Shown in pieces: positions 5,563 through 32,830 of a stretch of DNA of 64,000 nucleotides. The stretch spans positions 26,826 through 90,825 of the forward strand of contig NZ_JAFQSO010000007.1 in NCBI RefSeq assembly GCF_017409525.1, written 5' to 3'. Under the pieces are notes generated by a model. That model was not told where the DNA came from. It saw only the letters and a list, made by a program, of their open reading frames with translations, and ran no database searches. The translations under genes were made by a program, and so were the position numbers. This DNA comes from Methanobrevibacter sp. (GTDB lineage Archaea; Methanobacteriota; Methanobacteria; Methanobacteriales; Methanobacteriaceae). Position 1 is the stretch's first letter; the number at the start of each line of letters is the position of its first letter.

Positions 5563-6456
5563 TTAAATTAAATCAGAATCTTTTAACGCTTTTTTAAGAA
5601 CTTCTAAGTTTTCTTCTTTCATTTCACATAATGGTTGTCTGAGAGGTCCTGCAGGAAGTCCCATCAGATTCATTGCAGTTTTTACAGGGACAGGATTGCT
5701 TTCTATAAACAGGGCCCTTATAATATCGAGCATCTCATAGTGAAGTTCGAATGCTCTTGTATAATCATCATTTAAAATACTGTTAACCATTAGGGACATT
5801 CTTTTTGCATCAATATTTGCAGATGCACTGATTACACCAGTTCCGCCAACAGCCATTATCGGCAATGTTAATGAGTCTTCACCGGAAAGGATGTTGAAGT
5901 CATCCTCAAGATTTTCACGGGAAAGTGCCTGGTAAATATCAGATACCTTATCAACGCTACCGCTAGCCTCTTTAATAGCTTCGACACCATCAACTTTAGC
6001 CAATTCGACTGCAGTTTCTACTGCAATGTCAGAGCCGGTACGTGATGGAACGTTGTATGCTATGAGAGGAATATCACATTTCTCAGCAATTGTGCTGTAA
6101 TGTTCCACTAATGCGTGCTGTTGCGGTTTATTGTAATATGGAGTGATTAACAATGCAGCATCAGCACCAGCATCAACGGAAAATTTAGTCAAGGACAATG
6201 CTTCTGATGTGGCATTGCTGCCTGTTCCGGCAATAGTCTGGACTCTGCCATCAACTTCATCGACTAAAATTTCAATTATCCTTTGATGCTCATCATGAGA
6301 AATAGTGGCTGATTCGCCCGTGGTTCCTGCACCAACTAAACCGTCAACACCTTGATCAATTAAATAATTAATGTTTGACCTAAAACCTTCTTCATCGATA
6401 TTTTTTTCTTTATCAAATGGAGTTACCATTGCAACGTAAGTTCCTTCAAATTTCAT
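5563..6456 (-). CDS. dapA: 4-hydroxy-tetrahydrodipicolinate synthase
   Basis: GTTGES, YNVPSRT, IKEAS and ESNPVPVK motifs. Confidence 0.97.
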
Positions 6457-8504: not shown

Positions 8505-9692
8505 TCAAAGAATGGAACAATAATTTAAAAGTGATTTCATCATAGATAGCGATTTTGAAACTGACCCTGAAACTATAGTACCGCGAGGGGCTATAACTTC
8601 GCAAGTTACTGCTGGAATGCCTTTCAGACTAACAACATCCTCCAAAGCTCCAGGATATTCCACCCCTGCTTCATTGTATATCAAGCATTTTACATTGCTT
8701 TTTTTAGCAATATATTTTGCAATGGTTGCACTTTCGCCAGTCGGGTTATATGTTCCCATGGCAACATTCTTTCCGGGAACGCCTCCAGGCTTGGTGCAGT
8801 GGAAATCGCCATAAGCATCACATTTATATTTAACAATCAATTGCACTGTCTTATACGAGATTGTTCCTTTCACATTTGCATTCCTATTTAATTTAATATT
8901 ATAATCTCTGACATTTTTTTCAGTGGCTTTTGGATGCATGAACGGCATTATGTAAACAGTTCCATTAATTGGATTGGATTCCAAATGTTTAATTAGTTTT
9001 AATGCTGCAATCTGTGAGGACAACTCATTTCCATGAACTCCTGCAGTGATGAAAACGACTTTTCCGTTTCCGCCCTGAAACTTAACGACAGGAGTTCCTG
9101 ATTTTGCAAGATAAACCATTTTTCTAACTAAAGCAGAATCTGGAAGATTGGCTTTTATTTTTTTATTTTTAGTGACAACCCCACCGGAATTCCACTTATA
9201 ATTTATATAGGAATAAGCGTTTTTGACTTTGAAATTCTTCTTGCCGGAAATTCCCCCAGAAGAATAAGTCACTGGATAATTTCCAGCGCTCAAGTTTAGG
9301 TATATCTTAGCTACACCACTAGAGTTTGTAAAAACATTGTAAACCTTGTTATTCACTTTAAATTTAACTGACTGGTTTTCTATTGCTTTTCCTTTCTTAT
9401 CTAAAACCGTGACTTGGAATTTGGTTGGATTTCCATAGGTGGCTGTGACATCTTTTGCAGAAATTTTTGAAACCGCATTGTTGGTTTTTTTATCTGTTGA
9501 AGAACCGGATAAATTATAATAACTGCTTGAAGCTTTCAAATCATTGTCTGGAATTTCAATTGAACTGGAAACCGAATCGTTAGCTGCAGCTAATGTGGAA
9601 TTGCATGAATCAGGATTTACATCACTGGCATTGACCGCCGATAGTGATATGACTAAAAAAAATAAAAAAATTATGAAGTAGTATCTCTTCAT
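8505..9692 (-). CDS. Secreted Ig-like-domain protein with a C-terminal M14/succinylglutamate desuccinylase-aspartoacylase family metallopeptidase domain (copy 2)
   Basis: Signal peptide; adhesin-like Ig repeat (TNSSGVA); GVHGNE, LNR, DFH and TCEV motifs. Confidence 0.8.
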   Translation of the reverse strand: MKRYYFIIFLFFLVISLSAVNASDVNPDSCNSTLAAANDSVSSSIEIPDNDLKASSSYYNLSGSSTDKKTNNAVSKISAKDVTATYGNPTKFQVTVLDKKGKAIENQSVKFKVNNKVYNVFTNSSGVAKIYLNLSAGNYPVTYSSGGISGKKNFKVKNAYSYINYKWNSGGVVTKNKKIKANLPDSALVRKMVYLAKSGTPVVKFQGGNGKVVFITAGVHGNELSSQIAALKLIKHLESNPINGTVYIMPFMHPKATEKNVRDYNIKLNRNANVKGTISYKTVQLIVKYKCDAYGDFHCTKPGGVPGKNVAMGTYNPTGESATIAKYIAKKSNVKCLIYNEAGVEYPGALEDVVSLKGIPAVTCEVIAPRGTIVSGSVSKSLSMMKSLLNYCSIL

Positions 9693-11248
9693 ATTATCGA
9701 ATTAAATTTCAATAAATGTTTCATCATGTTTAGAGAAATATTTACTGATTTTGTTGTCACTGTATTATGTGGAAGGACTACTTCACAAATTACGGCTGGA
9801 ATGCCTTTTTTATTAACATTGTCCGCTAATGCACCAGGATATTCCTGACCTGCATATTTGTACAGCCGTTTATTTACATTACAATTTTTATAGATATACT
9901 CGGTTAGCGCTTCACAATCTTTTGCAGGGCTTCTTGATCCCATCACGATATTTTGACCCGGTGCTCCGCCAGGCTTTGTTGTGTGGAAATCCCCATATGA
10001 ATCACATTTAAGTTTTACCACCATATTCACAATCTTATTAGAGACAGTTCCAGGATTAGCGGCTACACGATTGAAATCCTTATCTGTGAACCTAACCTTT
10101 TTGGAGATTGCTTTTACATTAACGAAAGGAATAATGTAAACAGTTCCGTTAATCGGATTCTCAGTCATATATTTAATCAATTTCATTGCAGCTACTTGGG
10201 AAGACAACTCATTACCGTGAACGCCTGCAGTCAAGAAGACAACTTTACCTGACCCTCCTTTAACTGTCAATAAAGGAATGCCTTTTTTGGTTGCCGCTAC
10301 AGCTTGTTTAACCCAGTAATTATTAGGCATGTACTTTTTGATTAGCGGCGCTTTAGTAACATCTCCCTTAAGGCCCCAATATAAAATTTTCATTGTGATT
10401 TTATTGGTGACAGTGTATTTGTTTTGACCGCGCATATCATCAAGAGAATAGCTAATCATGTATTTTCCAGAGTCATAATTCAGATACAAGGCAGCATAAC
10501 CTTTAGCATCAGTTCGATTATTATATACTCTATCTCCAACTGTGAATTTCACATTAGCTCCTGAAATTGGATTTCCATCATTATCCAAGACCTTAATAGT
10601 GTATTTCGCCCAAGTACCGTATTTAACTTTTATGTCTCCAGAAGAAGTAATTTTATATGAATATAAAGTAATATTCCGTGTAACTGAAGCATTGCCGTAT
10701 TCGATGAAAATTTGATAATCGCCTGCACCTAAACGAATAGGCAATTTACCCTTTCCATTTTCATCAGTGCTGATTGAATAAGCTATACTGTTAAGTATTA
10801 CTGTAACGTCATCAACTGAAACCCCCTTACCATTTGAGTCCAGAAGTTTAAAGGTATAAACTGGGTTTGCATTATAATAACAAGCATAATCATCAGCTTG
10901 AATAGTTATATTTTGTGTGGAATTACCCTCAGTAGAATTACCCTCAGTCACATTACCAGAAGTAGAATTATCATCATTGAAATTACCCTCAGTCACATTA
11001 CCAGAAGTAGAATTATCATCATTGAAATTACCCTCAGTCACATTACCAGAAGTAGAATTACCCCCAGTAGAATTATCATCTACATCAGTAGTTTCATTAG
11101 AATCAGAAATAATTGTGCTGATGTCACCATCATCACAGAAAATATCATCATTAGTACTTTCCATTACAGAATCAGTGAAATTATCTGATGCTGAAACAGA
11201 TGAAATACTAACAAATAATATTAACATTAATATCATCAAACGTTTCAT
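9689..11248 (-). CDS. Secreted Ig-like-domain protein with a low-complexity N/S/T linker and a C-terminal M14/AstE-AspA family domain (copy 1)
   Basis: Signal peptide MKRLMILMLIL (ATG 11248 overlaps the aroK TGA); two Ig-like repeats; GVHGNE, FNR, DFH and ICEV motifs. Confidence 0.8.
   Translation of the reverse strand: MKRLMILMLILFVSISSVSASDNFTDSVMESTNDDIFCDDGDISTIISDSNETTDVDDNSTGGNSTSGNVTEGNFNDDNSTSGNVTEGNFNDDNSTSGNVTEGNSTEGNSTQNITIQADDYACYYNANPVYTFKLLDSNGKGVSVDDVTVILNSIAYSISTDENGKGKLPIRLGAGDYQIFIEYGNASVTRNITLYSYKITSSGDIKVKYGTWAKYTIKVLDNDGNPISGANVKFTVGDRVYNNRTDAKGYAALYLNYDSGKYMISYSLDDMRGQNKYTVTNKITMKILYWGLKGDVTKAPLIKKYMPNNYWVKQAVAATKKGIPLLTVKGGSGKVVFLTAGVHGNELSSQVAAMKLIKYMTENPINGTVYIIPFVNVKAISKKVRFTDKDFNRVAANPGTVSNKIVNMVVKLKCDSYGDFHTTKPGGAPGQNIVMGSRSPAKDCEALTEYIYKNCNVNKRLYKYAGQEYPGALADNVNKKGIPAVICEVVLPHNTVTTKSVNISLNMMKHLLKFNSII
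10936..11060. repeat. 45-bp perfect tandem repeat (2.8 copies) encoding NDDNSTSGNVTEGNF
   Basis: aattaccctcagtcacattaccagaagtagaattatcatcattga at 10936 and 10981, partial copy at 11026; degenerate 15-bp units flank it. Confidence 0.95.
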
Positions 11249-12111
11249 ATCATCACACAACCTTTATTGTCAACATTTGTTTCTATAATTTTTCCATCAT
11301 ATTTACTCCAACATTCTTTAACATCATCAATTGACTCTTCATCAACGATTGCAACAAATGAAGAGCCAGTACCAGATAATCCGGAAGCAATAGCTCCTGA
11401 TTGAAGGGCATCAACAGCTATTGTTGAATCAAATCCTAAAGTTGCGGAATAAATTAATCCATTTAAATTTAATGCTTTAAAATAATTTTTTTGCTTTGCA
11501 AATTCAAAAGCGGTTTCAACCAGAGGCGCTAACAATTTCATTCTTTCAGGGTCTGAATCACCTGATTTCGAATAGAAATTAGGCATATATACTAAAATAG
11601 GATGTTCTTCCATTTTTTCTTTTACAATGAACTCCCTGTTTTTATTATCGGTCACTACAACCCCTCCGAAATAGGAAGCTGTTGCATCATCAAAAGAGCC
11701 GGTTATTGTAACTCCCGCATCCAGCGATGCATCAATTGCCATGTTAATTGTTTCCAAATCATCAAGAGGAGCTAAATCAAATTCCTCGCTGATTATTGAA
11801 GATACAACTTTAACGATTGCATTAGATGAGGCGCTGCTGCTTGACAGTCCAGATGCCATCGGTAAACTAGATTGTGTTTTCAAATCAACTCCAAATTCAT
11901 TTTTATCAATATTATAATGCTTGAACACCTTTTCGGCACACAAATGCATTAATCCAGTATCTGCTCCAACATCATTGGAGCAAGTAATCGAATTACTTGT
12001 TGATTTGGCAATGCATCTAATATCCAAACCAATGCCGAATGCTGAACCAAAGCCAGTTGCAATAGCATTAATGATTGTTGCCGAACCTGGAGACCTCACA
12101 GCTTTTTTCAT
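11245..12111 (-). CDS. aroK: Archaeal shikimate kinase (GHMP family)
   Basis: SATIINAIATG, LSSSSA, TGSFDDA and LSGTGSS motifs. Confidence 0.94.
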   Translation of the reverse strand: MKKAVRSPGSATIINAIATGFGSAFGIGLDIRCIAKSTSNSITCSNDVGADTGLMHLCAEKVFKHYNIDKNEFGVDLKTQSSLPMASGLSSSSASSNAIVKVVSSIISEEFDLAPLDDLETINMAIDASLDAGVTITGSFDDATASYFGGVVVTDNKNREFIVKEKMEEHPILVYMPNFYSKSGDSDPERMKLLAPLVETAFEFAKQKNYFKALNLNGLIYSATLGFDSTIAVDALQSGAIASGLSGTGSSFVAIVDEESIDDVKECWSKYDGKIIETNVDNKGCVMI

Positions 12112-13193: not shown

Positions 13194-13233
13194 AAATTAA
13201 AATCTCCACTAATTATATTATTATTTAGTGATG

Positions 13234-13317
13234 TTATTGTTTAAATAAATATCCGAAAATTAGAAAAATTCTTTAATAAAAAAAGTCAAGTTTAATGTCT
13301 TATGCAGAGAATAAATC
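13234..13317. repeat. Direct repeat copy 1 (left of NRPS); includes a candidate TATA element for the GT4-aroK operon
   Basis: ttattgtttaaataaatatccgaaaattagaaaaattctt (40 bp) is identical to 25629..25668; close similarity continues for about 45 bp more. Confidence 0.9.
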
Positions 13318-13634
13318 TCGTAATATTTAACCAATATGTTCAAATCGTGAAAAAATTAACTCCACTGTCCTCACCCCTTGGAAAAATGGAAGAACCCCAT
13401 AAACATAGGGGAAAAACTGAAGTGATTCTTAAATAAACACTACTTAAATTCATGTTTATCCACCCTCATTATTGATTACTTCTTATTTTGATAACATTAA
13501 CATTATATCATAACTATATATGGATATTATAACGAAATATTATAATATAATTTGAATGTTAATTAATAACAAAATTTCTCGTGTTTTTAATTGGAATAAT
13601 ACTATTGCACAAAAAATACTTTAAAGCTTGAAGC

Positions 13635-13639
13635 GGAGG
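13635..13639 (+). promoter_or_regulatory. Ribosome-binding site of the NRPS
   Basis: GGAGG 7 nt upstream of the TTG start at 13647. Confidence 0.75.
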
Positions 13640-13646
13640 CCATATA

Positions 13647-16600
13647 TTGAATTATTATCAAGATGTTAAATTTATATTGAATGTTGATGTTAATGAGAAT
13701 TCAATAGAAAATGCCTTTAACAAGGCAAAAAACATTTTGAATTGGAGGATTGATGAAAATTCTAATGCAATCCTAATCGATGAGGAAGTCGATTATCAGA
13801 TTAAGGATGTTTCCAATTTAAAAGAAACCTCTGTTGAGGAAATTATAGATTCATTTTTTGATTTTACATTTGATGATATTATTGATGTTCCACTTTACAG
13901 ATTTCTAGTATTGAAAAACAATGAAAATTTTACAATTTTAGCAAACATCAACTCACTAATATTCGACTATTCCTCAATAAATGATTTCTATGAATTATTT
14001 GATAATTCTGAAAAATCTCCTCCAAAATTCAATCTGGATTCATATTATAAGGATGTTCAAGTTTACCTAAAATCTTCCGATTTTGAAAATGAATCCCGTT
14101 ATTGGAAAAACTACGTCCTAAACTCTAGCAAGCATATCAAATTCTACAACATAAAACATGACCATTATAAGAGCCAAAAAATTAATCCTGATATGAATTC
14201 CGTTTCCAGATTCATTAAAAATCATGATTGTACTTTATTTGATTTTTATGGAAGCATATTCTCACTATACTTGTCCCGCATTGACAGACTGGACGGATGT
14301 TTATTAAAAACTATTGTCCCCCGAAAAACTGATTTACAGATATTTGATAAAAATACTCTTTTTAAAGTTGATGTAAATGACCATGATTCATTCGATGATT
14401 TGTTGGATGAATTCGAATCAGCTTTAAAAAATGCTGTTGATAATACTAAAGTTGATGTTGACAATTATTTGGGTGAAAATGTCTCTTATTATACAATTTA
14501 TGATTTTTATGATTTAAATGAAAACATTAGTGTTTATAATGGAGAGGATTCAGCTTTAACATTGAACATTTATGAAAACTCATTGGAATTGCTTTACAAT
14601 TCAGACCTGTTTTCAGATGAATATATTGGGCGTATGGCAAAAAATATTGAAAGTTTGATTGATAATGTTTTAAATTCTCCTAATGCCGCAACAAGTGATA
14701 TTGATATCCTTTCAGAGGATGAAAAAAAGTTACTTCTTGATTTTTATAAGGGAATTGAAGATGATATTGACAAAGAGTTTATACTCAGCAAATATTTCCG
14801 CCATATTGCAATCAGTAATCCAGATATTATTGCTGTTGATGACGGTGTTGATCGGATAAGCTATGGTGAGCTGGAAAAATCAAGCAATTCAATTGCAAAT
14901 GATTTATTTGAGAATTACAATATTTCTTTAGGAAGTCATGTTGCTTTATTATTGCCTCGCAATTATCATTTTCTTGAATTGGTTTTAGCTTTAAATAAAA
15001 TTGGAGCCACATTCGTCCCAATAGATCTTACATATCCGATTAAACGTATTGAGCACATGTTGGAGATTTCTGAATCCGTGTGCATTGTCACTACTGAAGA
15101 TATTGCAAATAAATCTGATTTTAATCTAAATGTGGTTTGCATTGAAGACTTAAATTATGATGATGATGCTGATGTTGATATAATCTCTAGAAGCGAGGAT
15201 TTATTTTCTATAATGTTCACATCAGGAACTACAGGTCTTCCAAAGGGAGTGATGGTTTCCAATTATCAGATGGGTAGTTTAAGTATTGCTTTTAAACACC
15301 TCTTTTCTTTTTCATGTGGCGAGACTGCCGGATGTTATGTAAGTTTCAGTTTTATTGCATCATATATGGCTTATGTTGTATTGGCATTGGGGGGATGTGT
15401 CAGGATATTCAATGAAAATGAGCAGAAAAACAGCTTATTGATAATAGAAGCCCTTAAAGAAACACCAATGAATAATTTGATTTTACCTCCGACCATCGGC
15501 GTTCCTATTTATGACAATGAAGATTTGAAATTGGACTATCTTATTTTGGCAGGTGCAAAATTAAATGAACTAAGTAAACGGGACAGACATACCAAATTAG
15601 TTAATTTTTATGGCACAACAGAATTGATTTTAACAATTAGTAAAATTTATAATTTGAATGATGTTAAAGATAATCGTGTGCCCGTTGGTAAGCCTGTTGC
15701 TAACACATGGGTTTATGTTTTAGATGAAAATAGTAATATAATGCCTATTGGAGTTCCAGGAGAGTTATGTGTTTCCGGTGAAATTGTAAGTTCAGGATAT
15801 TACAATAATCCTGAATTAACAAATCAATTTTTTGTAGACAATCCAATCGCTGACAGTGAAAGTAATGGAATAATGTATCGTACCGGAGATATAGGATTTT
15901 ACAATCCGGAGGGAGAAATTGAAATTATTGGACGTGAAGACGATCAGTTGTCTGTCAGAGGTTTTCGTGTCGAATCAAATGAAATTCTTATCATAATGAA
16001 GAAATTTAAAGAAATTTCAGACGTTTATTTGGATGTTGATAATGACAACCTGATTGCATACTATACAACAAATGCCGAGTTGGACATAAATGAAGTTAAA
16101 GAAAATTTAGAAGATAATTTGCCTAGTTACATGATTCCTTCCCTTTTCATTGAATTGGATGAAATTCCATTAAATCTCAATGGAAAAATCGATAAATCTT
16201 CATTAAAAACAGCTTTAGATAATGATAACATTGAAATAACTGATGAAGTTATCAGCCATGTTGTTAATGCATTTAAAGAGGTTTTAAATATTGATTCTGT
16301 TTTCATTGATGATGATTTTGTTGGCAGAGGGGGCAATTCATTGTCTGCAATGAAATTACAATTATTATTGAAAGAAAAATTGGGCGTTAATTTATCCTCA
16401 AATGAAATAATAAGTCTTTCCACACCAAAAGACATCAGCAATCATATTAAATATAATATGAATATTCATTCGGCTCTTTATGAAGACAAATATCTGTTTG
16501 ATGAACCATGTCCTCTATCAGAATCACAATTAAACGTTTATCTTGATGAAAGTGTAAATGATATGGGCACAGCATACAACAATCCATTTAAAATAAAGTT

Positions 16601-19600
16601 AAAAGACAATTATTCCGTTAGTGAACTTAAAAATGCATTAATTAAATTGTTTGAAGTATTTCCTATTTTAAAAGCTCGTGTCTTTAGCGATGATGGAATT
16701 CTGTCCTTTGCATTTGATGCAGAACCTGAAATTAATGAAGGACATCTGAATGACATTAACTCTTTTGTCAAATCCTTTGAATTCGACAAATATTTATCCA
16801 GATTTTTAATTGTTGAAAATAAGCAATCTGTTATATTATGCGCTGATTTCCATCATTTGATTTTTGACGGCACATCATTGAACATCTTACTAGATGTCCT
16901 GTTTTCGATTTTGAATGGAGAAGATGTTGATTTTGTTGATTATGGGGTGTTAAAACAGGTTTTATTTGAAGAAAATATCGATTCAAATTATATGGATAAT
17001 GCCCATGAATTCTTTGATGAAATGCTGGCTGATAATGATGAGGTTTATGATTTACTGCCTTCTCTAAAAAGCAGTGAAGATGAATTTGAATTGGTAGATA
17101 CAATAGAGCTGGATGCGGAATATTTAAATTCATTCTTACAAAAGCATTCCATTACACATAATCAGTTCTTCGCTAGCGTTTTTGCATATGCCTTATCAAG
17201 ATTCAGCGGTTCGAATAAGGTTCTTTTCAATATTATAGATGACGGCAGAGGCAATATTGATTTGTCAGAGTCTGTAGGAATGTTCGTTAAAACATTGCCC
17301 GTCCTATTGGACTGCACAAATCAGAATGTTGATTCTTTTTTAGATTATTCTTCCACTTTGATTAATTCTGTAATGAAATATGATTTGTATCCTTTCCGTC
17401 TTTTGGCTAGTGAATATGATTTAAATTCAAATATCTTATTCCAATATTCCCATGATCTTTTTAATGACATGCTAAATAAAGAAGATTCAAAATATGGTAT
17501 TGAAGAATTGGAACATGATTTGAATGCAGATTTATCTTTATCTATTTTCAACGCTGGCGAAGATAGATTAATGATTAGGACTTTATATTCATCATTATAT
17601 TCTAAAGATTTCATTGAGCATTTTGTTGAATCTTATAAGCTAATTCTGCAGGATATAATTGAAGTTGAAGAATTAAAAGACATCAATTATACTGCAGGTG
17701 TTGATTTTGAGCTTTTAGACAGTTATAATCAGACTGGACATTCCTTGATTTATGAGGATATTTTGGATGCTTTTAATGACAATCTTGCCAAATATCCTAA
17801 AAACAATCTTGTAAGTTACAATGATAATGTTTACAGTTATGATGAAGGCGCTTTCATAGCCGATAAGATAGCCGACAGTTTAAGAAGTTTTGGTGTTGGA
17901 AAAGGGGAAAATGTCGCATTTTTAGTTGAAAGATCTGAATTATACATTTTCAGCATTTTAGGTATTCTGTCTGCCGGAGCGGTTTATGTTCCTTTGGATG
18001 ATAGTTTGCCTGATGAGCGTTTAAGTTTTATGTTGAGGGATACTAACTCTAAGGTTGTTATTGTTAGTGATGAAACTAGTGAACGTGCATTTAATTTGGG
18101 TGGTAATTGTATTACTTTAAATATTTCTGAGATTGTCAATGATGAAATTGGTATATTGTCTTGTTTGCCTGTTGTTTATAGTGATTTAGCTTGTATTTTA
18201 TACACTAGTGGTACTACTGGCGTTCCTAAAGGTGTAAAAATTACCCGCAAATCTGTAATTAATTTATCAAATTATTTTGCTGAGGATTATCCTTTTGATA
18301 ATTTAGATGTGTGTGGTTTGTATCCTTCCATTGGTTTTGATGCAGCTTCTCAATCAATATTCAAAACTATTTATGCAGGTGCTTCTCTGGTTATTATTCC
18401 AGATGACATTAAATTAGATATGATAAGGATGAATGATTATTTCTTAAAGTATAATGTCACATACTCTGCAATTCCTACTCAAGTAGCTAAACTTTTCATG
18501 CAAACTGTTGAGGATACTTCTTTAAAGAGTTTATCAATTGGTGGTGAAAAATTAGGTGAGTTTGAAAATCCTTTAAATCATATGTTAATTGATGAATTTG
18601 GACCTACTGAAGCATTTGCTTTTATCTCATCAATTGACAATTCTAAAAAAATTGATTCGTCCTCAGTAGGATTCCTAAATTACAATACAAAAACTTATAT
18701 TTTAGATAATGAATTTAGACAAGTGCCAATTGGTGCTGTCGGTGAATTGTATTTGGCAGGTTATCAAATAGCTGATGGATATCTAAATCGTGAAGAAGAA
18801 AATATCAAATCATTTATTGAAAATCCATTTGATGATAGTGTTGATTATGGTGTTTTGTATCGTACTGGCGATATGGTGCGTTTATTGCCTGATGGGTCTT
18901 TGGGTCTTGTTGGTCGTCGTGACAGTCAAGTTAAAATCAGTGGAAATCGTGTAGAATTATCAGAAATTGAATCGGTAATTCGTGAAATTGATTATATTAC
19001 GGATGTGACAGTTCAAACTATCAAACATATGGATAATTATGAATTGGTGGCTTATGTTGTAGCATCTGATGAATCTGATGATGAAACTCTAAAAGAGCAT
19101 GTTCGTGATTATGTTGCTCAATTTAAACCAGGTTATATGATTCCTTCATTTGTTGTCCGTTTGGACAGTATCCCTCTTAATATCAATGGTAAAATCGATT
19201 ATAGGCATCTGCCTGAAGTTGATTTGGACAGTTTGCGTGTGGAGTATGTTGCTCCAAATAATGAAATTGAAAAACAAATAGCCAATGCATTTGAGATTGT
19301 ATTTAATCAAAAAGACATTGGATTAAACGATGACTTTGTTCGTCTTGGCGGAGATTCCATCACTGCCATTCGTGTTGTTTCACTCTTGGAGAAAAATGAC
19401 ATTAACTGTGGTGCTGGAGATATATTGAATTATAAAACTCCATATTTGATTGCTCAAAATGTTGGCAGCATAGAGAAAGTTGCATACGATGCAGTAGAGG
19501 GAATTATGGATTTGCTTCCTATTCAGGAGTATTTCTTTGATCAAATTAACGAGGATGAATTTTCACAACACTTTATCTTAAAATCCTCAGAAAAAATAGA

Positions 19601-22600
19601 TATAAATACATTACAAGAATCTTTTGATGAATTATGCAATGTTCATGACATGCTTCGTACAAAATACAGCTATGATGAAAATGGAAAAGTAATACAGGAA
19701 ATATTGCCCGTGAATACCCAAATCCGTGAAATAGGTGAACATAATATCACCGAGAATCTTGAAGAATCACTGAAAGCAATCTATATAAAATCATTCAAAT
19801 CACTTAGCATAAAGAATAAGTTAATTGAAATCAATTTAATCCATCACAATAACGAATCCTACCTCATGTTCATCATCCATCATTTAATCATAGACGGAGT
19901 AAGCTGGAACATTCTAATCACAGATCTAACCCACATCTACACCAATTTAAAACAAGGAAAAGAAATTGAACTTTTAAGGCCGTATCCTTATAAAAATTGG
20001 GTGGAAGATGTTAGATATTTGGCTGAAAATATCAGTTATGAAGAAAAACAGCACTGGACAAAATTAAACCGACAAATTGATGATTCTACTATCAAAGGAG
20101 ATAATAAACCATTTGCGTTAGATTTTGATGTGAATTATGATGCGGATAATCTTTTGATGTTGTCTGAAGAGGAATATTGGGCCTTAGCAATCGCAAGAGC
20201 ATATAAAAAGACATATGGAAAAGAGTTAATATTAAACCGTGAGAGCCATGGCCGTGATGAGAGTATTGCAAAACTTAACAGAACAATAGGATGGTTCACA
20301 AGCCAATACCCAATACTAATCAACACAAACAACAAAAATGACAACATTTCCATAATGAACGATGTCTACAACATCAAAACAGCACTCAGAGACGTTAAAA
20401 ATTTAGGTTTGAATTATTCCTCCTTAATCTACACAACAAAAGAATTAGAATTCAAGCACTGCCCAGTAACCTTCAATTTCCTAAGCAGCGAATTTGCATT
20501 CGAAAACGAACTATTTGAATCATACATTCCAAAATCGGCTTCTAATGAGGAAATAAACATTAAACAAGACCCTACCTCTTATGGTATCACATTCAATATT
20601 GCTCGCAATGCTGATTCGTATATGGTTAGTGGGGATTATGCAGATAATACTTACATAGGCAATGATTTCAATGTTTTCATTAAAAATATCGAATCTGAAT
20701 TGAAATTCCTTGGCAATTATACATTCAAGGACAATAACATTGTTTGTTGTTTGTCTGAGTCTCAATTGGGCATTTATCTGGATGAAAAAGTGCATGAAAA
20801 AGATACTGCATATTCAGCACATGGAATTTTCGAATATGATGCCAAATATACGACTGAGAACATTAAAGATGCCATTCATGCTTTAATTAATAGGCATCCC
20901 ATCTTAAAAGGCCGAATTTTAGACACTGAAAACCTGCCTCTTTTAATTTGTGACAGCTATCCAACAATTGAAATAATCAATACGACAGATTATTCAAATC
21001 TAATCAAAGCATTCGATTTAGATAAATTCTTAGCGCGTTTTTACATCTTAGATAATGAGCAAAAGAAATTTGTATTTTATGATATGCACCATATCATTAG
21101 TGATGCAACCAGCTGTACAATCATTAATAAAGAATTACGGCAAGCTTTATTGGGCAAATTAGATGATAATGTGGATTTGGGCTTTGCTTATGCCAGCCGA
21201 AATTCATTTGAATCCCACTACAATCATAAATATGAATCCTCTCAGAAATTCTTCCATGATGAATTTGCCGACATTGATGAAATCCAACATCTTTTAAGTG
21301 ACCTTGATGGAGATAAAGGTAGTGTTAGTCTTCCTATTAGGGGCGTTCGTGATGATATTGAAACATTTACGGAAAATATTGGCATTAGTGTTGGCAGTTT
21401 ATTGAATGCTGCATTTGCATATACATATTCACGTTTCATAGGTGGCAACAAGGTTTACTATAACTTTACTGAACATGGCCGGCATGAAGATTACTCACAA
21501 AATGCAATTGGAATGTTTGTGCGAACAATACCAATCATTGCAAATTGTGAAAATAAATCGATTAATGATTACTTGACCAATATGTCTGATTTAATCTTAA
21601 ACTCAATGACAAACAGCATATATCCATTTAGATTGCTTGCAAAAGAATACAATTTAAGTATCGATGTTGCATTTGAGTATAATCATGATTTGAATGATTT
21701 CGATATTGGCAATGATTTGGTGGCAAGTGATGATGCTGACGGCATTAGCGATTTCTTATGTGTCGTCAATGACCTGGAAGACGGATTTGTCGTGACTGTA
21801 AGCCATTTAGATAAATTCAGCCAACATACAGCAAAACAATTCGTTAAAGCATTCAAAGAGGTGTTGGTCCAATTTTTAGAAAAAGAAAAACTAGAGGACA
21901 TCAGTTATATCTCCAATGAAGACATTGAACTTTTAGACAGTTATAATAAAACACAATGTCCTTTAAAGTATTGTGATATTTTGGATGCATTCAATGACAA
22001 TCTTGCCAGATACCCAAAAAACAGCCTGGTAACCTATAAAAATAATAGTTATACATATGATGAAAGTGCATTCATCGCCAATAAAATAGCAAACGATTTG
22101 AAGAAGATGGGCATTAATAAAAATGACAATGTTGCATTTTTAGTTGAGAGATCAGAATTATACCTGTTCACCATTTTAGGAATTCTATCCACCGGAGCAA
22201 CATACGTTCCTTTGGATGATGCCCTTCCGGATGAACGCATAAAGTTCATGATGGATGATGCTGATGCTGAAGTTGTTATTGTCTGTGATGATACTTACAA
22301 TCGTGCTAAAAATCTATCAGAGGAAAACAGACTTCTAAATATTTCAAACATTATCAAAGAAAATATTGGAACTTCTTCTAAGTTGGATGTTACTTATAGC
22401 GATTTGGCCTGTATCTTATACACCAGCGGCACTACAGGCATTCCTAAAGGAGTTAGAATAACACGCAAAGCTATTTTAAATCTTTCACAAACATACTGTG
22501 ACACATATGATTTTGGTCGGAATGATGTTTATGCTTTATATTCAAATATCGGATTTGACGCCGGATCTCAAGCAATCCTTCAAACAACATATGCCGGAGC

Positions 22601-25115
22601 TTCTTTAACTGTAATTCCTGAGGATATTAAATTTAATATTACTAAGTTGAATGAACATTTCATTAAACAGAATGTTACCCATACTTTTATTTCCACACAG
22701 GTCGCTAAACTGTTCATGGAGCAAATTGACAATACCTCATTAAGGATTTTATCAGTAGGCGGTGAGAAGTTAGGTAAATTCGAAAGTCCAAAAGATTATC
22801 GTTTAATTGATGCATACGGTCCAACCGAAACATTTGCATTCATATCTTCTATCGACAATGACGATAAAAAGGATGGGTCTTCAGCAGGCATGCTAAACGA
22901 AAATACTCGCGCGTATATTTTGGATGATAATTTCAGACGTGTTCCTGTCGGTGCTGTTGGTGAATTATGCTTAGCAGGTTACCAAATTGCCGACGGATAC
23001 CTAAACCGCCCAGAAGAAAACGCCAAAGCATTCATCAACAATCCATTTGATGATAAAGAAGGCTACAGCATATTGTATCGCACGGGAGATATGGTTCGGT
23101 TATTGCCTGATGGGTCATTGGGCATTGTTGGCCGTCGTGACAGCCAAGTTAAAATCAGAGGAAACCGTGTGGAACTGACAGAGGTTGAATCTGCAATAAG
23201 AGACATGGATTATATTAAAGATGTTACAGTCCAAATCACTTCAAATAATGGAAATAATGAATTAATTGCCTATATTGTACTGTCTGACGGTTTTTACGGA
23301 GATGACATTGATAATTCTGTTCGCGAATTCGTATCCAAATGCAAACCGAATTATATGGTTCCGTCATATGTAATAACATTGTATGAAATTCCTTTAAATG
23401 TAAACGGCAAAGTTGATAAGCGTGCTTTGCCCGATGTTGACATAGATAGTTTACGTGATAAATATGTCGCACCAAGAAACAAAAATGAAAAAGAAATTGT
23501 CGAAGCCTTTAAAAAAGCATTAAATTTAGAAAAAGTCAGTATATATGATGATTTCATTCGTTTAGGTGGAGATTCATTGACTGCAACTAAGTTATCATCC
23601 TATGTTAAGTCTGATGATGTCACTATGGCGGATATCTTCACTTTCCGCACTCCCGAGGCAATTGCAAAGAATATCTCTGAATACTCATTTGATTTGGATA
23701 TTTATTCTTTAGAAGATGGTTGTCCTTTGAATTCTGCGCAAAGTGATGTAATTGCAGATATAATAGGTTATAATAAATCGGATGCTTATCATGTAATAAG
23801 TTATATTCCTATCTCTAAGAAATATGATCTTGAAAAAATACTTAGTTCATTAGATGAGATGTTAAATATGCATCCGGTTTTAAGCATGCGCTTGAGTGAG
23901 CGGCATGATGAAAGTGATACTGATGTATCTAATCGAGATGCGCTTAATGATTTAATGAGAACTGCTAAAAAATTCGGAACCAAAAAATTCCTGAACATTA
24001 TCAACGGATATGGAATAAAAGATATTTGCGGTCTTTACAATATGCTTAGAACCCTTATAAGGTTGTTTAAAGGAGAGTATCCGTATTTAGTGAAAGGAAA
24101 TAAACCCCCAATTTCAGTGGAATCCAAATTTGATAGGGATGTTTTAATTGATTTCCTTTCTGAAAGTTTCGATATCTATGATTGTTTATCTAAGTTCATG
24201 ATTATTGAATCTGAGGATTCCTATTATTTATTTTGTGTGGTTCATCATCTCATTTTTGATGCAGTTTCAGCAGGAGTATTCAAAAGTGATTTCATGACGC
24301 TTCTTGACGGAGGAAGCATCGATTTTGATGACGGATTTTTAAAGGCATCTGCTTTTACTCATCAAATGAAAAGAACCGGAAAATTCAATGAAGCAAGGGA
24401 ATTTTATCACAATATTCTGTCAAATCTTGATGATGTAGACTTTTTACTGGAAGATAATCCTTCAGCTGAAGGTTATAATATGTCAACATATGATTTGGAT
24501 TTTGATAAAAAGGCATTCAAATCCTTTTTAAATAATGCTGGAATTAGTGAATACGTATTATTTATCGCTGTATTTTCTTATGCATTGTCCCAATTTGTAA
24601 ATGGTGATAAAGCCCAATTTATAATGAATGAAAATGGACGTGACAGATTCAACGAGAAATTCATATCCATGACCTCCAACCTGGTGCCGGTAGTTATAGA
24701 CTGCAAAGATCAAAGCATCAATTCATTTATTAGAGATGCCGCAGATACTGTTTACAAATCATTGAGATATAGCTATTATCCAACTTTCCTGCTTTATCCG
24801 AAATACGACTTTGAAAGAGATATAGCATTCCAATTTGTACCCAACTGGATTGCAGACGATTTTGATAGTTTTGAGAATATTGATGATATGGGTGCAGGAG
24901 AAATTATTAATCAAGTCCTTAATGATTTCAATGATTTTGTAACGGAATTATTTGTTCAAGTTCACCAAAACGGTGATGATTACAGGTTAATTATCTCACA
25001 TTCAAACAAATATTCCCAAAAGATGATTAATGACTTCAAAGACACTTACACATCAATTTTATCAAATATTATTAATGCATCCATGTCCTCTGATTTAAGC
25101 AGCACTTTGAAATAG
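13647..25115 (+). CDS. Three-module non-ribosomal peptide synthetase: C*-A-T-C-A-T-E-C-A-T-C, no TE
   Basis: Three A domains (FTSGTTGLPKG, YTSGTTGVPKG, YTSGTTGIPKG; YRTGD; NGK). Three carrier serines (GGNS 16338, GGDS 19356, GGDS 23574). C motifs HHLIFDG 16851, HHIISDA 21087, HHLIFDA 24243. E domain HHLIIDGVSW 19878 with ESHGRD and RTIGWFT. Confidence 0.96.
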   Translation: MNYYQDVKFILNVDVNENSIENAFNKAKNILNWRIDENSNAILIDEEVDYQIKDVSNLKETSVEEIIDSFFDFTFDDIIDVPLYRFLVLKNNENFTILANINSLIFDYSSINDFYELFDNSEKSPPKFNLDSYYKDVQVYLKSSDFENESRYWKNYVLNSSKHIKFYNIKHDHYKSQKINPDMNSVSRFIKNHDCTLFDFYGSIFSLYLSRIDRLDGCLLKTIVPRKTDLQIFDKNTLFKVDVNDHDSFDDLLDEFESALKNAVDNTKVDVDNYLGENVSYYTIYDFYDLNENISVYNGEDSALTLNIYENSLELLYNSDLFSDEYIGRMAKNIESLIDNVLNSPNAATSDIDILSEDEKKLLLDFYKGIEDDIDKEFILSKYFRHIAISNPDIIAVDDGVDRISYGELEKSSNSIANDLFENYNISLGSHVALLLPRNYHFLELVLALNKIGATFVPIDLTYPIKRIEHMLEISESVCIVTTEDIANKSDFNLNVVCIEDLNYDDDADVDIISRSEDLFSIMFTSGTTGLPKGVMVSNYQMGSLSIAFKHLFSFSCGETAGCYVSFSFIASYMAYVVLALGGCVRIFNENEQKNSLLIIEALKETPMNNLILPPTIGVPIYDNEDLKLDYLILAGAKLNELSKRDRHTKLVNFYGTTELILTISKIYNLNDVKDNRVPVGKPVANTWVYVLDENSNIMPIGVPGELCVSGEIVSSGYYNNPELTNQFFVDNPIADSESNGIMYRTGDIGFYNPEGEIEIIGREDDQLSVRGFRVESNEILIIMKKFKEISDVYLDVDNDNLIAYYTTNAELDINEVKENLEDNLPSYMIPSLFIELDEIPLNLNGKIDKSSLKTALDNDNIEITDEVISHVVNAFKEVLNIDSVFIDDDFVGRGGNSLSAMKLQLLLKEKLGVNLSSNEIISLSTPKDISNHIKYNMNIHSALYEDKYLFDEPCPLSESQLNVYLDESVNDMGTAYNNPFKIKLKDNYSVSELKNALIKLFEVFPILKARVFSDDGILSFAFDAEPEINEGHLNDINSFVKSFEFDKYLSRFLIVENKQSVILCADFHHLIFDGTSLNILLDVLFSILNGEDVDFVDYGVLKQVLFEENIDSNYMDNAHEFFDEMLADNDEVYDLLPSLKSSEDEFELVDTIELDAEYLNSFLQKHSITHNQFFASVFAYALSRFSGSNKVLFNIIDDGRGNIDLSESVGMFVKTLPVLLDCTNQNVDSFLDYSSTLINSVMKYDLYPFRLLASEYDLNSNILFQYSHDLFNDMLNKEDSKYGIEELEHDLNADLSLSIFNAGEDRLMIRTLYSSLYSKDFIEHFVESYKLILQDIIEVEELKDINYTAGVDFELLDSYNQTGHSLIYEDILDAFNDNLAKYPKNNLVSYNDNVYSYDEGAFIADKIADSLRSFGVGKGENVAFLVERSELYIFSILGILSAGAVYVPLDDSLPDERLSFMLRDTNSKVVIVSDETSERAFNLGGNCITLNISEIVNDEIGILSCLPVVYSDLACILYTSGTTGVPKGVKITRKSVINLSNYFAEDYPFDNLDVCGLYPSIGFDAASQSIFKTIYAGASLVIIPDDIKLDMIRMNDYFLKYNVTYSAIPTQVAKLFMQTVEDTSLKSLSIGGEKLGEFENPLNHMLIDEFGPTEAFAFISSIDNSKKIDSSSVGFLNYNTKTYILDNEFRQVPIGAVGELYLAGYQIADGYLNREEENIKSFIENPFDDSVDYGVLYRTGDMVRLLPDGSLGLVGRRDSQVKISGNRVELSEIESVIREIDYITDVTVQTIKHMDNYELVAYVVASDESDDETLKEHVRDYVAQFKPGYMIPSFVVRLDSIPLNINGKIDYRHLPEVDLDSLRVEYVAPNNEIEKQIANAFEIVFNQKDIGLNDDFVRLGGDSITAIRVVSLLEKNDINCGAGDILNYKTPYLIAQNVGSIEKVAYDAVEGIMDLLPIQEYFFDQINEDEFSQHFILKSSEKIDINTLQESFDELCNVHDMLRTKYSYDENGKVIQEILPVNTQIREIGEHNITENLEESLKAIYIKSFKSLSIKNKLIEINLIHHNNESYLMFIIHHLIIDGVSWNILITDLTHIYTNLKQGKEIELLRPYPYKNWVEDVRYLAENISYEEKQHWTKLNRQIDDSTIKGDNKPFALDFDVNYDADNLLMLSEEEYWALAIARAYKKTYGKELILNRESHGRDESIAKLNRTIGWFTSQYPILINTNNKNDNISIMNDVYNIKTALRDVKNLGLNYSSLIYTTKELEFKHCPVTFNFLSSEFAFENELFESYIPKSASNEEINIKQDPTSYGITFNIARNADSYMVSGDYADNTYIGNDFNVFIKNIESELKFLGNYTFKDNNIVCCLSESQLGIYLDEKVHEKDTAYSAHGIFEYDAKYTTENIKDAIHALINRHPILKGRILDTENLPLLICDSYPTIEIINTTDYSNLIKAFDLDKFLARFYILDNEQKKFVFYDMHHIISDATSCTIINKELRQALLGKLDDNVDLGFAYASRNSFESHYNHKYESSQKFFHDEFADIDEIQHLLSDLDGDKGSVSLPIRGVRDDIETFTENIGISVGSLLNAAFAYTYSRFIGGNKVYYNFTEHGRHEDYSQNAIGMFVRTIPIIANCENKSINDYLTNMSDLILNSMTNSIYPFRLLAKEYNLSIDVAFEYNHDLNDFDIGNDLVASDDADGISDFLCVVNDLEDGFVVTVSHLDKFSQHTAKQFVKAFKEVLVQFLEKEKLEDISYISNEDIELLDSYNKTQCPLKYCDILDAFNDNLARYPKNSLVTYKNNSYTYDESAFIANKIANDLKKMGINKNDNVAFLVERSELYLFTILGILSTGATYVPLDDALPDERIKFMMDDADAEVVIVCDDTYNRAKNLSEENRLLNISNIIKENIGTSSKLDVTYSDLACILYTSGTTGIPKGVRITRKAILNLSQTYCDTYDFGRNDVYALYSNIGFDAGSQAILQTTYAGASLTVIPEDIKFNITKLNEHFIKQNVTHTFISTQVAKLFMEQIDNTSLRILSVGGEKLGKFESPKDYRLIDAYGPTETFAFISSIDNDDKKDGSSAGMLNENTRAYILDDNFRRVPVGAVGELCLAGYQIADGYLNRPEENAKAFINNPFDDKEGYSILYRTGDMVRLLPDGSLGIVGRRDSQVKIRGNRVELTEVESAIRDMDYIKDVTVQITSNNGNNELIAYIVLSDGFYGDDIDNSVREFVSKCKPNYMVPSYVITLYEIPLNVNGKVDKRALPDVDIDSLRDKYVAPRNKNEKEIVEAFKKALNLEKVSIYDDFIRLGGDSLTATKLSSYVKSDDVTMADIFTFRTPEAIAKNISEYSFDLDIYSLEDGCPLNSAQSDVIADIIGYNKSDAYHVISYIPISKKYDLEKILSSLDEMLNMHPVLSMRLSERHDESDTDVSNRDALNDLMRTAKKFGTKKFLNIINGYGIKDICGLYNMLRTLIRLFKGEYPYLVKGNKPPISVESKFDRDVLIDFLSESFDIYDCLSKFMIIESEDSYYLFCVVHHLIFDAVSAGVFKSDFMTLLDGGSIDFDDGFLKASAFTHQMKRTGKFNEAREFYHNILSNLDDVDFLLEDNPSAEGYNMSTYDLDFDKKAFKSFLNNAGISEYVLFIAVFSYALSQFVNGDKAQFIMNENGRDRFNEKFISMTSNLVPVVIDCKDQSINSFIRDAADTVYKSLRYSYYPTFLLYPKYDFERDIAFQFVPNWIADDFDSFENIDDMGAGEIINQVLNDFNDFVTELFVQVHQNGDDYRLIISHSNKYSQKMINDFKDTYTSILSNIINASMSSDLSSTLK

Positions 25116-25628
25116 GATTATGATGTCTGAAATTTTTAGTTTTTCTGAAAGTTATTGAATGGCTGTTTTTAAGTTGAACCACCTCACCTATAGAGGTCAA
25201 AGATTCCAAGATTTAATGATAATTAAGTATTTTCCGGGCAATTTTCGGTAAATTCCAACCTATTGAAATCAATGAACTCTAAACAGTATGAGAAGTCAGA
25301 ATAAATGTTAAAATGTAGTGGTGGTTGAAATAAAACACACATCGGGTAATTTTTATATTTGAAAAAAATAATAATTTATTAAGCATAATCTCAAGGATAT
25401 GATTTTGAAAAGTTTTTTCATTTATTTTTAGGATTTTGAATTTTGGAGACAATCATGCCATTGAATATAATTAAAGACAGGGAAGTATACAGCATATATG
25501 AATTAGCTTTCTAAACTATTTTTTATTTGAATTATCGTTTGTTTAAGGATATTACATATAAATATTAATAAATAATAAGGCACTACGGCTATAATCTAGA
25601 GAACTATAAAGTAGTGATAAATAGCATA

Positions 25629-25714
25629 TTATTGTTTAAATAAATATCCGAAAATTAGAAAAATTCTTAATAAAAAAAAGTCAAATTTAATGTCTTATTA
25701 CAGAGAAAAAAATC
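25629..25714. repeat. Direct repeat copy 2 (right of NRPS, downstream of cbiD)
   Basis: Matches 13234..13317: 40 identical bp, then a few substitutions and indels. Confidence 0.9.
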
Positions 25715-25848
25715 CCTACAATATTCGCTGTAGACATTAAAAATCAATAGATGTACATCTTCAAAGAGGTTTACTTTAAAAATAACTCTCTCGTATAATC
25801 TTATTTTAAAATTTTATATAAACTTAACTATTTTTAAAAAGAAGGTAA

Positions 25849-32682: not shown

Positions 32683-32755
32683 TGCCATGTGCCGGACTTG
32701 AACCAGCGACATCTAGATCTTCAGTCTAGCGTTCTCCCATCTGAACTAACATGGC
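32683..32755 (-). tRNA. tRNA-Phe(GAA)
   Basis: GCCATGT acceptor stem; CTAGA-CTGAAGA-TCTAG anticodon arm; TTCAAGT T-loop; no encoded CCA. Confidence 0.96.
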
Positions 32756-32758
32756 ATA

Positions 32759-32830
32759 TGGACCGAACGAGATTCGAACTCGTGATCTCCTCCACGTCAA
32801 AGAGGAATCATACCCCTAGACCACCGGTCC
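32759..32830 (-). tRNA. tRNA-Val(GAC)
   Basis: GGACCGG acceptor stem; CCTCT-TTGACGT-GGAGG anticodon arm; ACGAG-TTCGAAT-CTCGT T-arm; 3-nt spacer to tRNA-Phe. Confidence 0.93.

Follow-up and report, generated by a model that had tools for sequence, protein, structure and literature searches.

The locus studied here raises the question of what a methanogen could make, and how it would release it, with a three-module non-ribosomal peptide synthetase (NRPS) that ends in a condensation domain. The gene lies in a 64,000-nucleotide stretch of Methanobrevibacter sp. DNA (assembly GCF_017409525.1, contig NZ_JAFQSO010000007.1, positions 26,826 to 90,825), hereafter called the window, to which all coordinates without a contig label refer. 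Our analysis revealed that the NRPS gene at 13647-25115 is real and intact and comprises three modules, and we consider it rather probable that it encodes a complete, self-contained enzyme which loads a starter, adds D-Xaa and L-Yaa and releases a capped peptide through its terminal condensation domain. NRPS genes have been known from Methanobrevibacter since 2010 (PMC2812497), and were also described in M. millerae (PMC4987999). A survey of the rumen counted 687 NRPS clusters in 125 archaeal genomes, in Methanobrevibacter only and at about 3.8 per genome, with near relatives differing in their NRPS content (PMC8241843), so that the statement in the original prediction that such genes are rare in Archaea holds outside this genus and fails within it. 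The products of the M. ruminantium NRPSs were still unknown in 2021, when a PCP-R structure was reported (PMC8024701), and literature searches returned no later product report for Methanobrevibacter NRPSs.

The gene forms a single uninterrupted open reading frame (ORF) on the + strand, encoding 3822 aa, and no other large ORF is present there. Its start codon is TTG, preceded by GGAGG at 13636-13640 with a spacer of 6 nt, and a 90.6%-identical orthologue on contig L038 likewise displays a GGAGG-TTG start. Pfam analysis of the whole protein revealed three AMP-binding, three PP-binding and six Condensation stretches, while analysis of cut pieces resulted in the domain order C*-A-T-C-A-T-E-C-A-T-C (C, condensation; A, adenylation; T, carrier; E, epimerisation), with a weak first Condensation match (55.6 bits) and with AMP-binding_C found at the second and third AMP-binding domains. 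The three AMP-binding domains score 187-213 bits; with TIGR01733 the scores are 278-332 bits against a cut-off of 317, the A3 domain lying above it and A1 and A2 slightly under it. Motif A3, (T/Y)TSGTTGxPKG, occurs three times, motifs A5, A7, A8 and A10 were also located, and the A10 lysines are at aa 847, 1849 and 3255. One PF00550 carrier domain follows each A domain, with the carrier serines at aa 898, 1904 and 3310, and HHxxxD(G/A) was found at aa 1069 (C2), 2078 (E), 2481 (C3) and 3533 (C4), C2 (HHLIFDG) and C3 (HHIISDA) scoring 125 and 102 bits with Pfam Condensation. Neither a thioesterase (TE) nor a reductase (R) domain or motif was detected in the protein by Pfam and motif scans; NAD_binding_4 and GxTGxLG are absent, and a C domain stands at the C-terminus. 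NCBIfam equivalogs score far under their cut-offs on the protein, and the closest PDB matches of its domains are distant. Thus, the intact frame with its GGAGG ribosome-binding site, the three catalytic lysines and carrier serines and the terminal C domain in place of TE or reductase, all claimed from the letters of the DNA, were confirmed by these checks; the prediction also knew of no characterised product, and the equivalog scores, the distant PDB matches and the literature (PMC8024701) revealed neither such a product nor a nearly identical synthetase that has been characterised.

The assembly line starts with a loader. Its first domain, C* (13647-14771, aa 1-375; two Pfam Condensation stretches), was aligned with other C-type domains using MAFFT and reads NSLIFDY at the HHxxxDG position (HPSIFNY in a paralogue of the same genome, HPLILNY in P0057), while the first c. 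30 residues, corresponding to the C1-motif region, are missing. Since the motif is replaced and the N-terminus truncated, C* is no canonical condensation catalyst, which agrees with its label C* in the original prediction. By these features it is dead in that function, yet under purifying selection, with a ratio of non-synonymous to synonymous substitution rates (dN/dS) of 0.22 against the L038 orthologue, the same as for the catalytic domains. It retains both lobes (Pfam Condensation profile positions 26-268 and 345-456), and its C-lobe has a weak match in the N-terminal part of Lys2 (TIGR03443 positions 76-224, E 5.7e-6). We interpret C* as a structural partner kept for A1. The possibility of a starter (lipo-initiation) C domain was also considered and rejected, as the domain reads NSLIFDY rather than HHxxxDG and A1 carries Ile235.

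The following A1 domain (14772-16241, aa 376-865; AMP-binding 191.8 bits) is otherwise intact, and its pocket reads IAMIIAFLTK, with Ile at position 235, while the pockets of A2 and A3 are of the D...K type. These codes were read from a MAFFT alignment to GrsA-PheA, in which the GrsA sequence returned the published DAWTIAAICK and K517; only MAFFT codes were used, as regular-expression extraction across the family mis-registers the loader positions. Work by Conti in 1997 and Stachelhaus in 1999 is said to have shown that Asp235 binds the alpha-amino group of the substrate. Because Ile replaces this residue, the starter would not be an alpha-amino acid, and this part of the earlier prediction stands on the alignment. 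Given its all-hydrophobic pocket, A1 would take a hydrophobic 2-hydroxy or 2-oxo acid, or else a simple aryl or branched-chain acid, and a dead C* and an amine-less starter fit each other. The loader is completed by the T1 carrier (16242-16481; GGNSL, Ser898 at nt 16338).

The second module consists of C2 (16482-17831, with HHLIFDG at aa 1069), A2 (17832-19250, pocket DAQ(A/S)SGEAFK), T2 (19251-19490; GGDSI, Ser1904) and a seventh domain (19491-20801, HHLIIDG at aa 2078). In the PDB the latter matches E domains best (E 1e-23 to 1e-41), namely those of GrsA, TycA, TycB, PvdL and bacitracin synthase 3, while its matches to ordinary C domains reach only about 1e-7, and the E-type motifs PIQEYF, HHLIIDGVSW, ESHGRD and RTIGWFTSQYP could be read by eye. 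Judged by these nearest solved relatives it is an epimerisation domain, in line with the earlier call. The third module comprises C3 (20802-22031, HHIISDA at aa 2481), A3 (22032-23468, pocket DAQ(F/T)SGAAFK) and T3 (23469-23696; GGDSL, Ser3310). As C3 follows E, its donor is expected to be D-configured. A2 and A3 are 63% identical and their pockets similar, from which we infer that residues 2 and 3 are alike; the same pocket type recurs in the Methanobrevibacter NRPS family.

The terminal C4 domain (23697-25112, HHLIFDA at aa 3533) contains an insertion of c. 60 aa at aa 3418-3481 (nt 23898-24089; ...KKFG...GLYNM...FKGEYPY) that is conserved in the family and for which we know of no counterpart. 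Ten aligned family sequences keep HH(L/I)IFDA and the insertion, with both His, the Asp and the Ala invariant. A search of the PDB with the C4 profile hit only distant elongation C domains (BacC, LgrA, AmbB), and the fungal CT domain (TqaA) was not matched. Screening a six-frame translation of the genome with a hidden Markov model (HMM) built from seven T domains revealed no carrier protein outside the four NRPSs of this genome. It is therefore most likely that C4 passes the chain to a nucleophile free of any carrier, or to a group of the chain itself.

Put together, A1 would adenylate a hydrophobic non-alpha-amino carboxylic acid, for which candidates are abundant in the gut, and load it onto T1, with C* taking no part in condensation and kept as a support of A1, as in the Lys2 ADA domain or the C* of ACV synthetase. 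C2 would couple the starter to amino acid 2, E would turn this residue into its D form, C3 would add amino acid 3, and C4 would transfer the acyl-D-Xaa-L-Yaa chain to a soluble amine or alcohol, to water or to a group within the chain. The product is thus likely a small capped peptide of the type acyl- or hydroxyacyl-D-Xaa-L-Yaa, and the biosynthetic order originally proposed, with a D-configured residue 2, a third residue and release by a terminal C domain, can be upheld.

The genome encoding this NRPS (2.11 Mb in 23 contigs), which belongs to an uncultured Methanobrevibacter of the cattle gut, harbors four NRPS ORFs in total, the others being a 4422-residue paralogue and two open frames of 4190 and 2612 residues. 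The latter two begin with C-A loaders of their own and carry a reductase-type GxTGxLG motif at their ends, as do mru_0351 and mru_0068 of M. ruminantium M1. Beside the 2612-residue NRPS, the genome encodes an Sfp-type phosphopantetheinyl transferase (PPTase; PF01648, 55.9 bits, 219-aa frame, C1:74369-74653). With A, carrier and C domains and a PPTase in the genome, the window gene is by its domain content a modular (type I) NRPS, and calling it an orphan is overstated, the term being true only in that the product is unknown. Two observations on the other synthetases may be added: the loader A domain of the mru_0068-like NRPS (C1:63605-71440) also lacks Asp235 (IVRGIGSIAK), and the mru_0351-like NRPS (C21:10594-23163) displays three near-identical pockets, DVD(D/E)FGSITK, with a weak IS240-type DDE fragment on the same contig (C21:6544-7320).

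The 4422-residue paralogue comprises four modules, none with an E domain. Its loader resembles that of the window NRPS (C* 52%, A1 67%, T1 58% and C2 56% identity), as does its end (last T 76%, terminal C 68.5%), while the inner modules are only 30-60% alike. These ends are common to dozens of Methanobrevibacter NRPSs from metagenomes. Among the 120 best homologues, the first A domain of many starts at about residue 520-545 and is preceded by a C domain lacking the His motif, SFSF(I/V/A/G)AS recurs as the loader motif, and many carry their last HH(I/L)IFDA c. 285 residues before the C-terminus; of about 125 homologues listed, 49 have their C-terminus 270-295 residues past HHxxxD, the spacing of a terminal C domain, and most of those listed read HH(I/L)IFDA. 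The family, which ranges roughly from three to six modules, has a few bacterial members (e.g., from a Lachnospiraceae metagenome-assembled genome and from a 3.86-Mb genome), and its named close homologues all belong to Methanobrevibacter. By these shared ends the window NRPS is a member of a family, defined here, of synthetases in which a dead C domain and a non-amino-acid A domain open the protein and a terminal C domain closes it. Its architecture, which had been called unusual, is standard for this large family. An MFS gene lies directly downstream of the paralogue, and an FtsX permease or MFS gene lies beside the NRPS in two relatives (L010 and L012, respectively). As pumps neighbor these genes, the product of the window NRPS is probably exported by a pump encoded elsewhere. 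A 279-aa protein upstream of the L012 homologue, taken by eye for an integrase, was dropped as it had no Pfam match.

With regard to its position, the NRPS gene separates two genes, cbiD and a GT4 gene, that are adjacent in 17/17 congeneric genomes, none of which has an NRPS there. In these relatives the two genes are 12 bp to 4.7 kb apart, with varied small cargo in between, so that the junction is, in this comparison, an insertion hotspot and the NRPS a species-specific single-gene insertion. Among five relatives with such cargo (L015, L016, L021, L022, L029), a conserved 155-aa protein is encoded in three; further cargo comprises a 269-aa secreted protein, a 322-aa protein and a 4.7-kb block with dehydrogenase-like and regulator-like genes. 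The insertion in the window is bracketed by direct repeats of about 85 nt (13229-13315 and 25624-25712) that are 93% identical and 12,395 nt apart, and contigs from runs X1, X5 and X16 break at the right copy. The bracketing repeats belong to a dispersed intergenic repeat of c. 240-550 nt, here called R-X-Y (13229-13315 and 25607-25848 in the window), which occurs at least three times in the genome, including C5:81470-82022 and C7:111386-111625, and which is found once and unsplit between GT4 and cbiD in a related species (L017:18114-18634). Between the repeats and outside the NRPS gene there is no ORF of at least 80 aa. A search against Rfam revealed no RNA gene in the island, its only matches in the window being two adjacent tRNA genes far downstream (32683-32830, - strand). 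An integrase-borne island was considered and rejected, as no integrase or transposase ORF and no tRNA target lie inside.

The protein is identical on 22 public contigs, all in the context seen in the window and with flanks of 99.9-100% identity. Copies in two further contexts allowed us to define the edges of a mobile unit. The L038 copy (90.6% identity; L038:1-16650) covers 13510-25181 and sits between a paaK-like (phenylacetate-CoA-ligase-like)/ACT gene pair and iorAB (indolepyruvate/2-oxoacid ferredoxin oxidoreductase); a 2-nt deletion at gene position 5771 breaks its frame. A 99.7% allele, frequent in cattle metagenomes, covers 13510-25358, and its flanks, which are unrelated to those of the window, end and begin with the inverted sequences TCTAGCACCCT and AGGGTGCTAGA. 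The upstream region of the unit (13510-13646, + strand), likely containing promoter and 5' untranslated region, starts exactly where the similarity to L038 and to the 99.7% allele (L047, L049) starts, and its downstream part (25116-25358, + strand) reaches to the end of the similarity with the 99.7% allele. The NRPS gene is accessory and moves between chromosomal sites as a promoter-plus-gene cassette of c. 11.85 kb. That two copies of one insertion sequence flank the 99.7% allele is a guess; a 32-mer from its right flank had no exact match in JGI metagenome contigs, and for the 40-aa end of an ORF in its left flank tblastn matches did not rise above chance level.

In the 99.7% allele, an element is inserted in the linker between E and C3, at a site (20713-20720) that is intact in the window and is seen at the tail of L040 and the head of L041. 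The element, whose ends lie at L040:5532-5631 and L041:1-139, is bounded by terminal inverted repeats of 25 nt, G(AA/GC)TATGTAAAAAATTTTGTGGGTT, with 7-8 bp of the target, (G)CAATTAT, duplicated; it is absent from the genome of the window. Compared to L038, the overall dN/dS of the window gene is 0.24 (0.03-0.38 per domain). The loader, at 70% amino acid identity and a synonymous distance (dS) of 0.75-1.0, is far more diverged than the remainder (91-99%; dS 0.07-0.29), and by this contrast the NRPS gene itself is recombinant. In addition, DNA contigs from four cattle runs (X6, X9-X11) lead from 23170 back to 18978 across 25 other letters, at full allele depth; this join may be a hybrid A3/A2 junction of an extra-module variant or belong to another NRPS that shares segments.

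At least 20 public metagenome runs of gut or bovine origin, belonging to about ten studies, contain the NRPS gene. In four bovine metatranscriptomes of one study, contigs of at least 99% identity start at 13685-13706 and cover 13685-20570, while the same data hold no contigs over 20.7-25.1 kb and almost none on the flanking genes. For three of these samples, DNA runs give even coverage of the entire island and show the same SNPs. As the 3' part is present in the DNA of the samples and missing from the RNA, DNA carry-over is ruled out. The RNA contigs derive from the disrupted 99.7% allele, whose transcript ends before the insertion at 20713-20720, and they show that the promoter of the cassette is active in the animal gut. 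A search at 80% likeness with region 19000-25000 in RNA runs X25-X27 also returned many transcripts 80-95% identical to the window NRPS, and related Methanobrevibacter NRPSs are thus broadly transcribed in the cattle habitat. Scans of both intergenic regions for sigma-70 promoters and intrinsic terminators gave promoter matches at chance level and no terminators, with models that are not archaeal.

Some of these findings weigh against a working, self-sufficient peptide synthetase. The PDB matches of C3 are weak and go to L-donor type domains, the pockets of A2 and A3 match no specificity code known to us, and the AlphaFold2 model of C4, built on a 10-sequence alignment, reached a mean local confidence score (pLDDT) of 51.9 with an unresolved N-lobe, too poor for the acceptor side to be judged. 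The island carries no transporter or tailoring gene, the RNA stems from the disrupted sister allele, the intact allele is represented by exact low-depth contigs only, in one run of uncertain library type (X29), and both other known copies of the cassette are broken, indicating that selection is not strong everywhere. An NRPS that is silent or decaying, a recently acquired passenger without a role in its host, would account for an island that consists of the NRPS alone, with neither exporter nor regulator, for a widespread allele split by an element, for the deletion in the L038 orthologue and for the fact that no full-length RNA of the intact allele was seen directly. We nevertheless regard it as quite unlikely, since the frame runs without a break over 11.5 kb and does not vary among 22 contigs of many samples, purifying selection extends over the domains, all motifs are intact, the genome encodes a PPTase and the promoter is active in vivo. 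The suggestion that the enzyme modifies the cell wall or lipids, with C4 passing its peptide to pseudomurein, a glycan or a lipid amine in concert with the neighboring GT4, draws on the GT4 gene 450 nt upstream on the opposite strand and on the ability, in principle, of a terminal C domain to acylate a cell-bound amine. Here, GT4, a GHMP kinase gene and cbiD form a block that is conserved without the NRPS in all 17 relatives, and the same cassette is found elsewhere between the unrelated paaK-like/ACT and iorAB genes, so that the linkage to GT4 is accidental; the role as a cell-wall or lipid modifier envisaged in the original prediction is unsupported and extremely improbable.

The remaining alternatives concern the fate of the chain on T3. 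Were C4 to pass it to the carrier of another synthetase, e.g., the four-module paralogue, the NRPS would be a first subunit, and its C-terminal C domain does resemble a subunit junction of multi-protein NRPSs in a genome that harbors three others. Yet the paralogue has a loader and a terminal C domain of the same type, the other two have C-A loaders of their own at the start and R domains at the end, the T-domain search of the six-frame translation turned up no A-T or T protein standing alone, family members elsewhere are also single genes by pumps, and the island came to this site alone; we judge such a relay to be very unlikely. Depsipeptide logic as in enniatin and beauvericin, in which A1 loads a 2-hydroxy acid and C4 forms a macrolactone or a cyclic dimer (two tripeptidol units, 18-membered), is improbable. 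It draws on the layout of the enniatin, beauvericin and bassianolide synthetases, with a non-catalytic C1, a canonical C2 and a terminal cyclising C3 (PMC11546977), on the truncated and dead C*, an A1 without Asp235 and the presence of a terminal C domain, and on the loader and the terminal T-C being the two parts best conserved between the paralogues, which would be expected of parts acting on one another's substrates. Against it stand the single T3 where a twin carrier would precede the terminal C domain, the lack of a ketoreductase (KR) domain to obtain a hydroxy acid from a keto acid, an unlikely 9-membered ring for the monomer, and a C4 profile that matches bacterial elongation C domains and not the fungal CT domain; the resemblance to the fungal enzymes is one of layout only. 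Extending this logic to the archaeal and gut-bacterial family as a whole, as makers of hydroxy-acid-primed cyclic depsipeptides that converged on the enniatin scheme and spread as promoter-plus-gene cassettes, is a speculation we hold to be rather doubtful. We prefer the self-contained synthetase that releases a small capped peptide by C4.

Apart from the NRPS, a variable region was observed at 8505-11260 (- strand), where two tandem paralogous genes encode AstE/AspA-like catalytic domains together with Ig-like or carboxypeptidase-regulatory domains. The second of these genes has 504, 519 or 523 aa among strains, differing via a short repeat near 10963-11016, and strain L039 carries a 92.7%-identical recombinant stretch in this region.

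That NRPS genes are common in Methanobrevibacter was already known. New are the definition of a family by its shared loader and terminal C domain, the finding that C* is by its motif dead yet selected, and a predicted non-amino-acid starter backed by alignment, as well as the insertion site and cassette edges, the natural knock-out alleles and promoter activity in vivo. No archaeal non-ribosomal peptide has been identified so far, though gut and rumen Methanobrevibacter carry several synthetases each. As a compact representative of its family, with three modules in one protein, the window NRPS is a convenient first target for heterologous expression, and the intact and insertion-disrupted alleles that coexist in cattle metagenomes offer near-isogenic controls, making comparative metabolomics feasible. 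Mobility of the cassette between chromosomal sites also explains why NRPS content varies among methanogens that are close relatives, as published. If the product acts on the fitness or syntrophy of methanogens, it would be relevant to methane mitigation, and if the depsipeptide reading were true, the family would provide the first depsipeptides from archaea and a practical entry into the chemical ecology of methanogens.

Dead condensation-like pieces before the first A domain also occur as the ADA domain of Lys2-type alpha-aminoadipate reductases and as the C* of ACV synthetase, both of which presumably support adenylation; C* of the window NRPS differs from Lys2 in keeping both lobes, and its Lys2 match lies far under the family cut-off. 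Release onto a free amine by a terminal C-type domain is also the role of VibH. Terminal C domains of the rhabdopeptide/xenortide synthetases likewise release onto free amines (PMC6195595). These systems differ from the window NRPS in that they are built from single-module subunits bearing docking domains, or use a C domain that stands alone. The fungal cyclooligomer depsipeptide synthetases are eukaryotic, iterative enzymes of two modules with twin T domains and an N-methyltransferase, to which no close sequence relation is detectable; with three distinct modules, an E domain and a single T3, the window NRPS was not assigned to their class. The nearest described enzymes by organism are mru_0068 and mru_0351 of M. 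ruminantium, which share genus and habitat and are large single-gene NRPSs of likely bacterial origin. While the M1 genes end in a reductase, the window gene displays a terminal C domain, an E domain and a dead first C domain, and it shares only about 24-33% identity per domain with the M1-type genes of its own genome; an assignment to the mru_0068/mru_0351 type was therefore rejected, as no terminal reductase domain is present. Finally, the population surveyed from the rumen includes the window gene, and the differences in NRPS content reported there fit the mobility of the cassette; while that survey gives counts and similarity networks (PMC8241843), the present analysis adds domain anatomy, insertion sites and expression for this gene.

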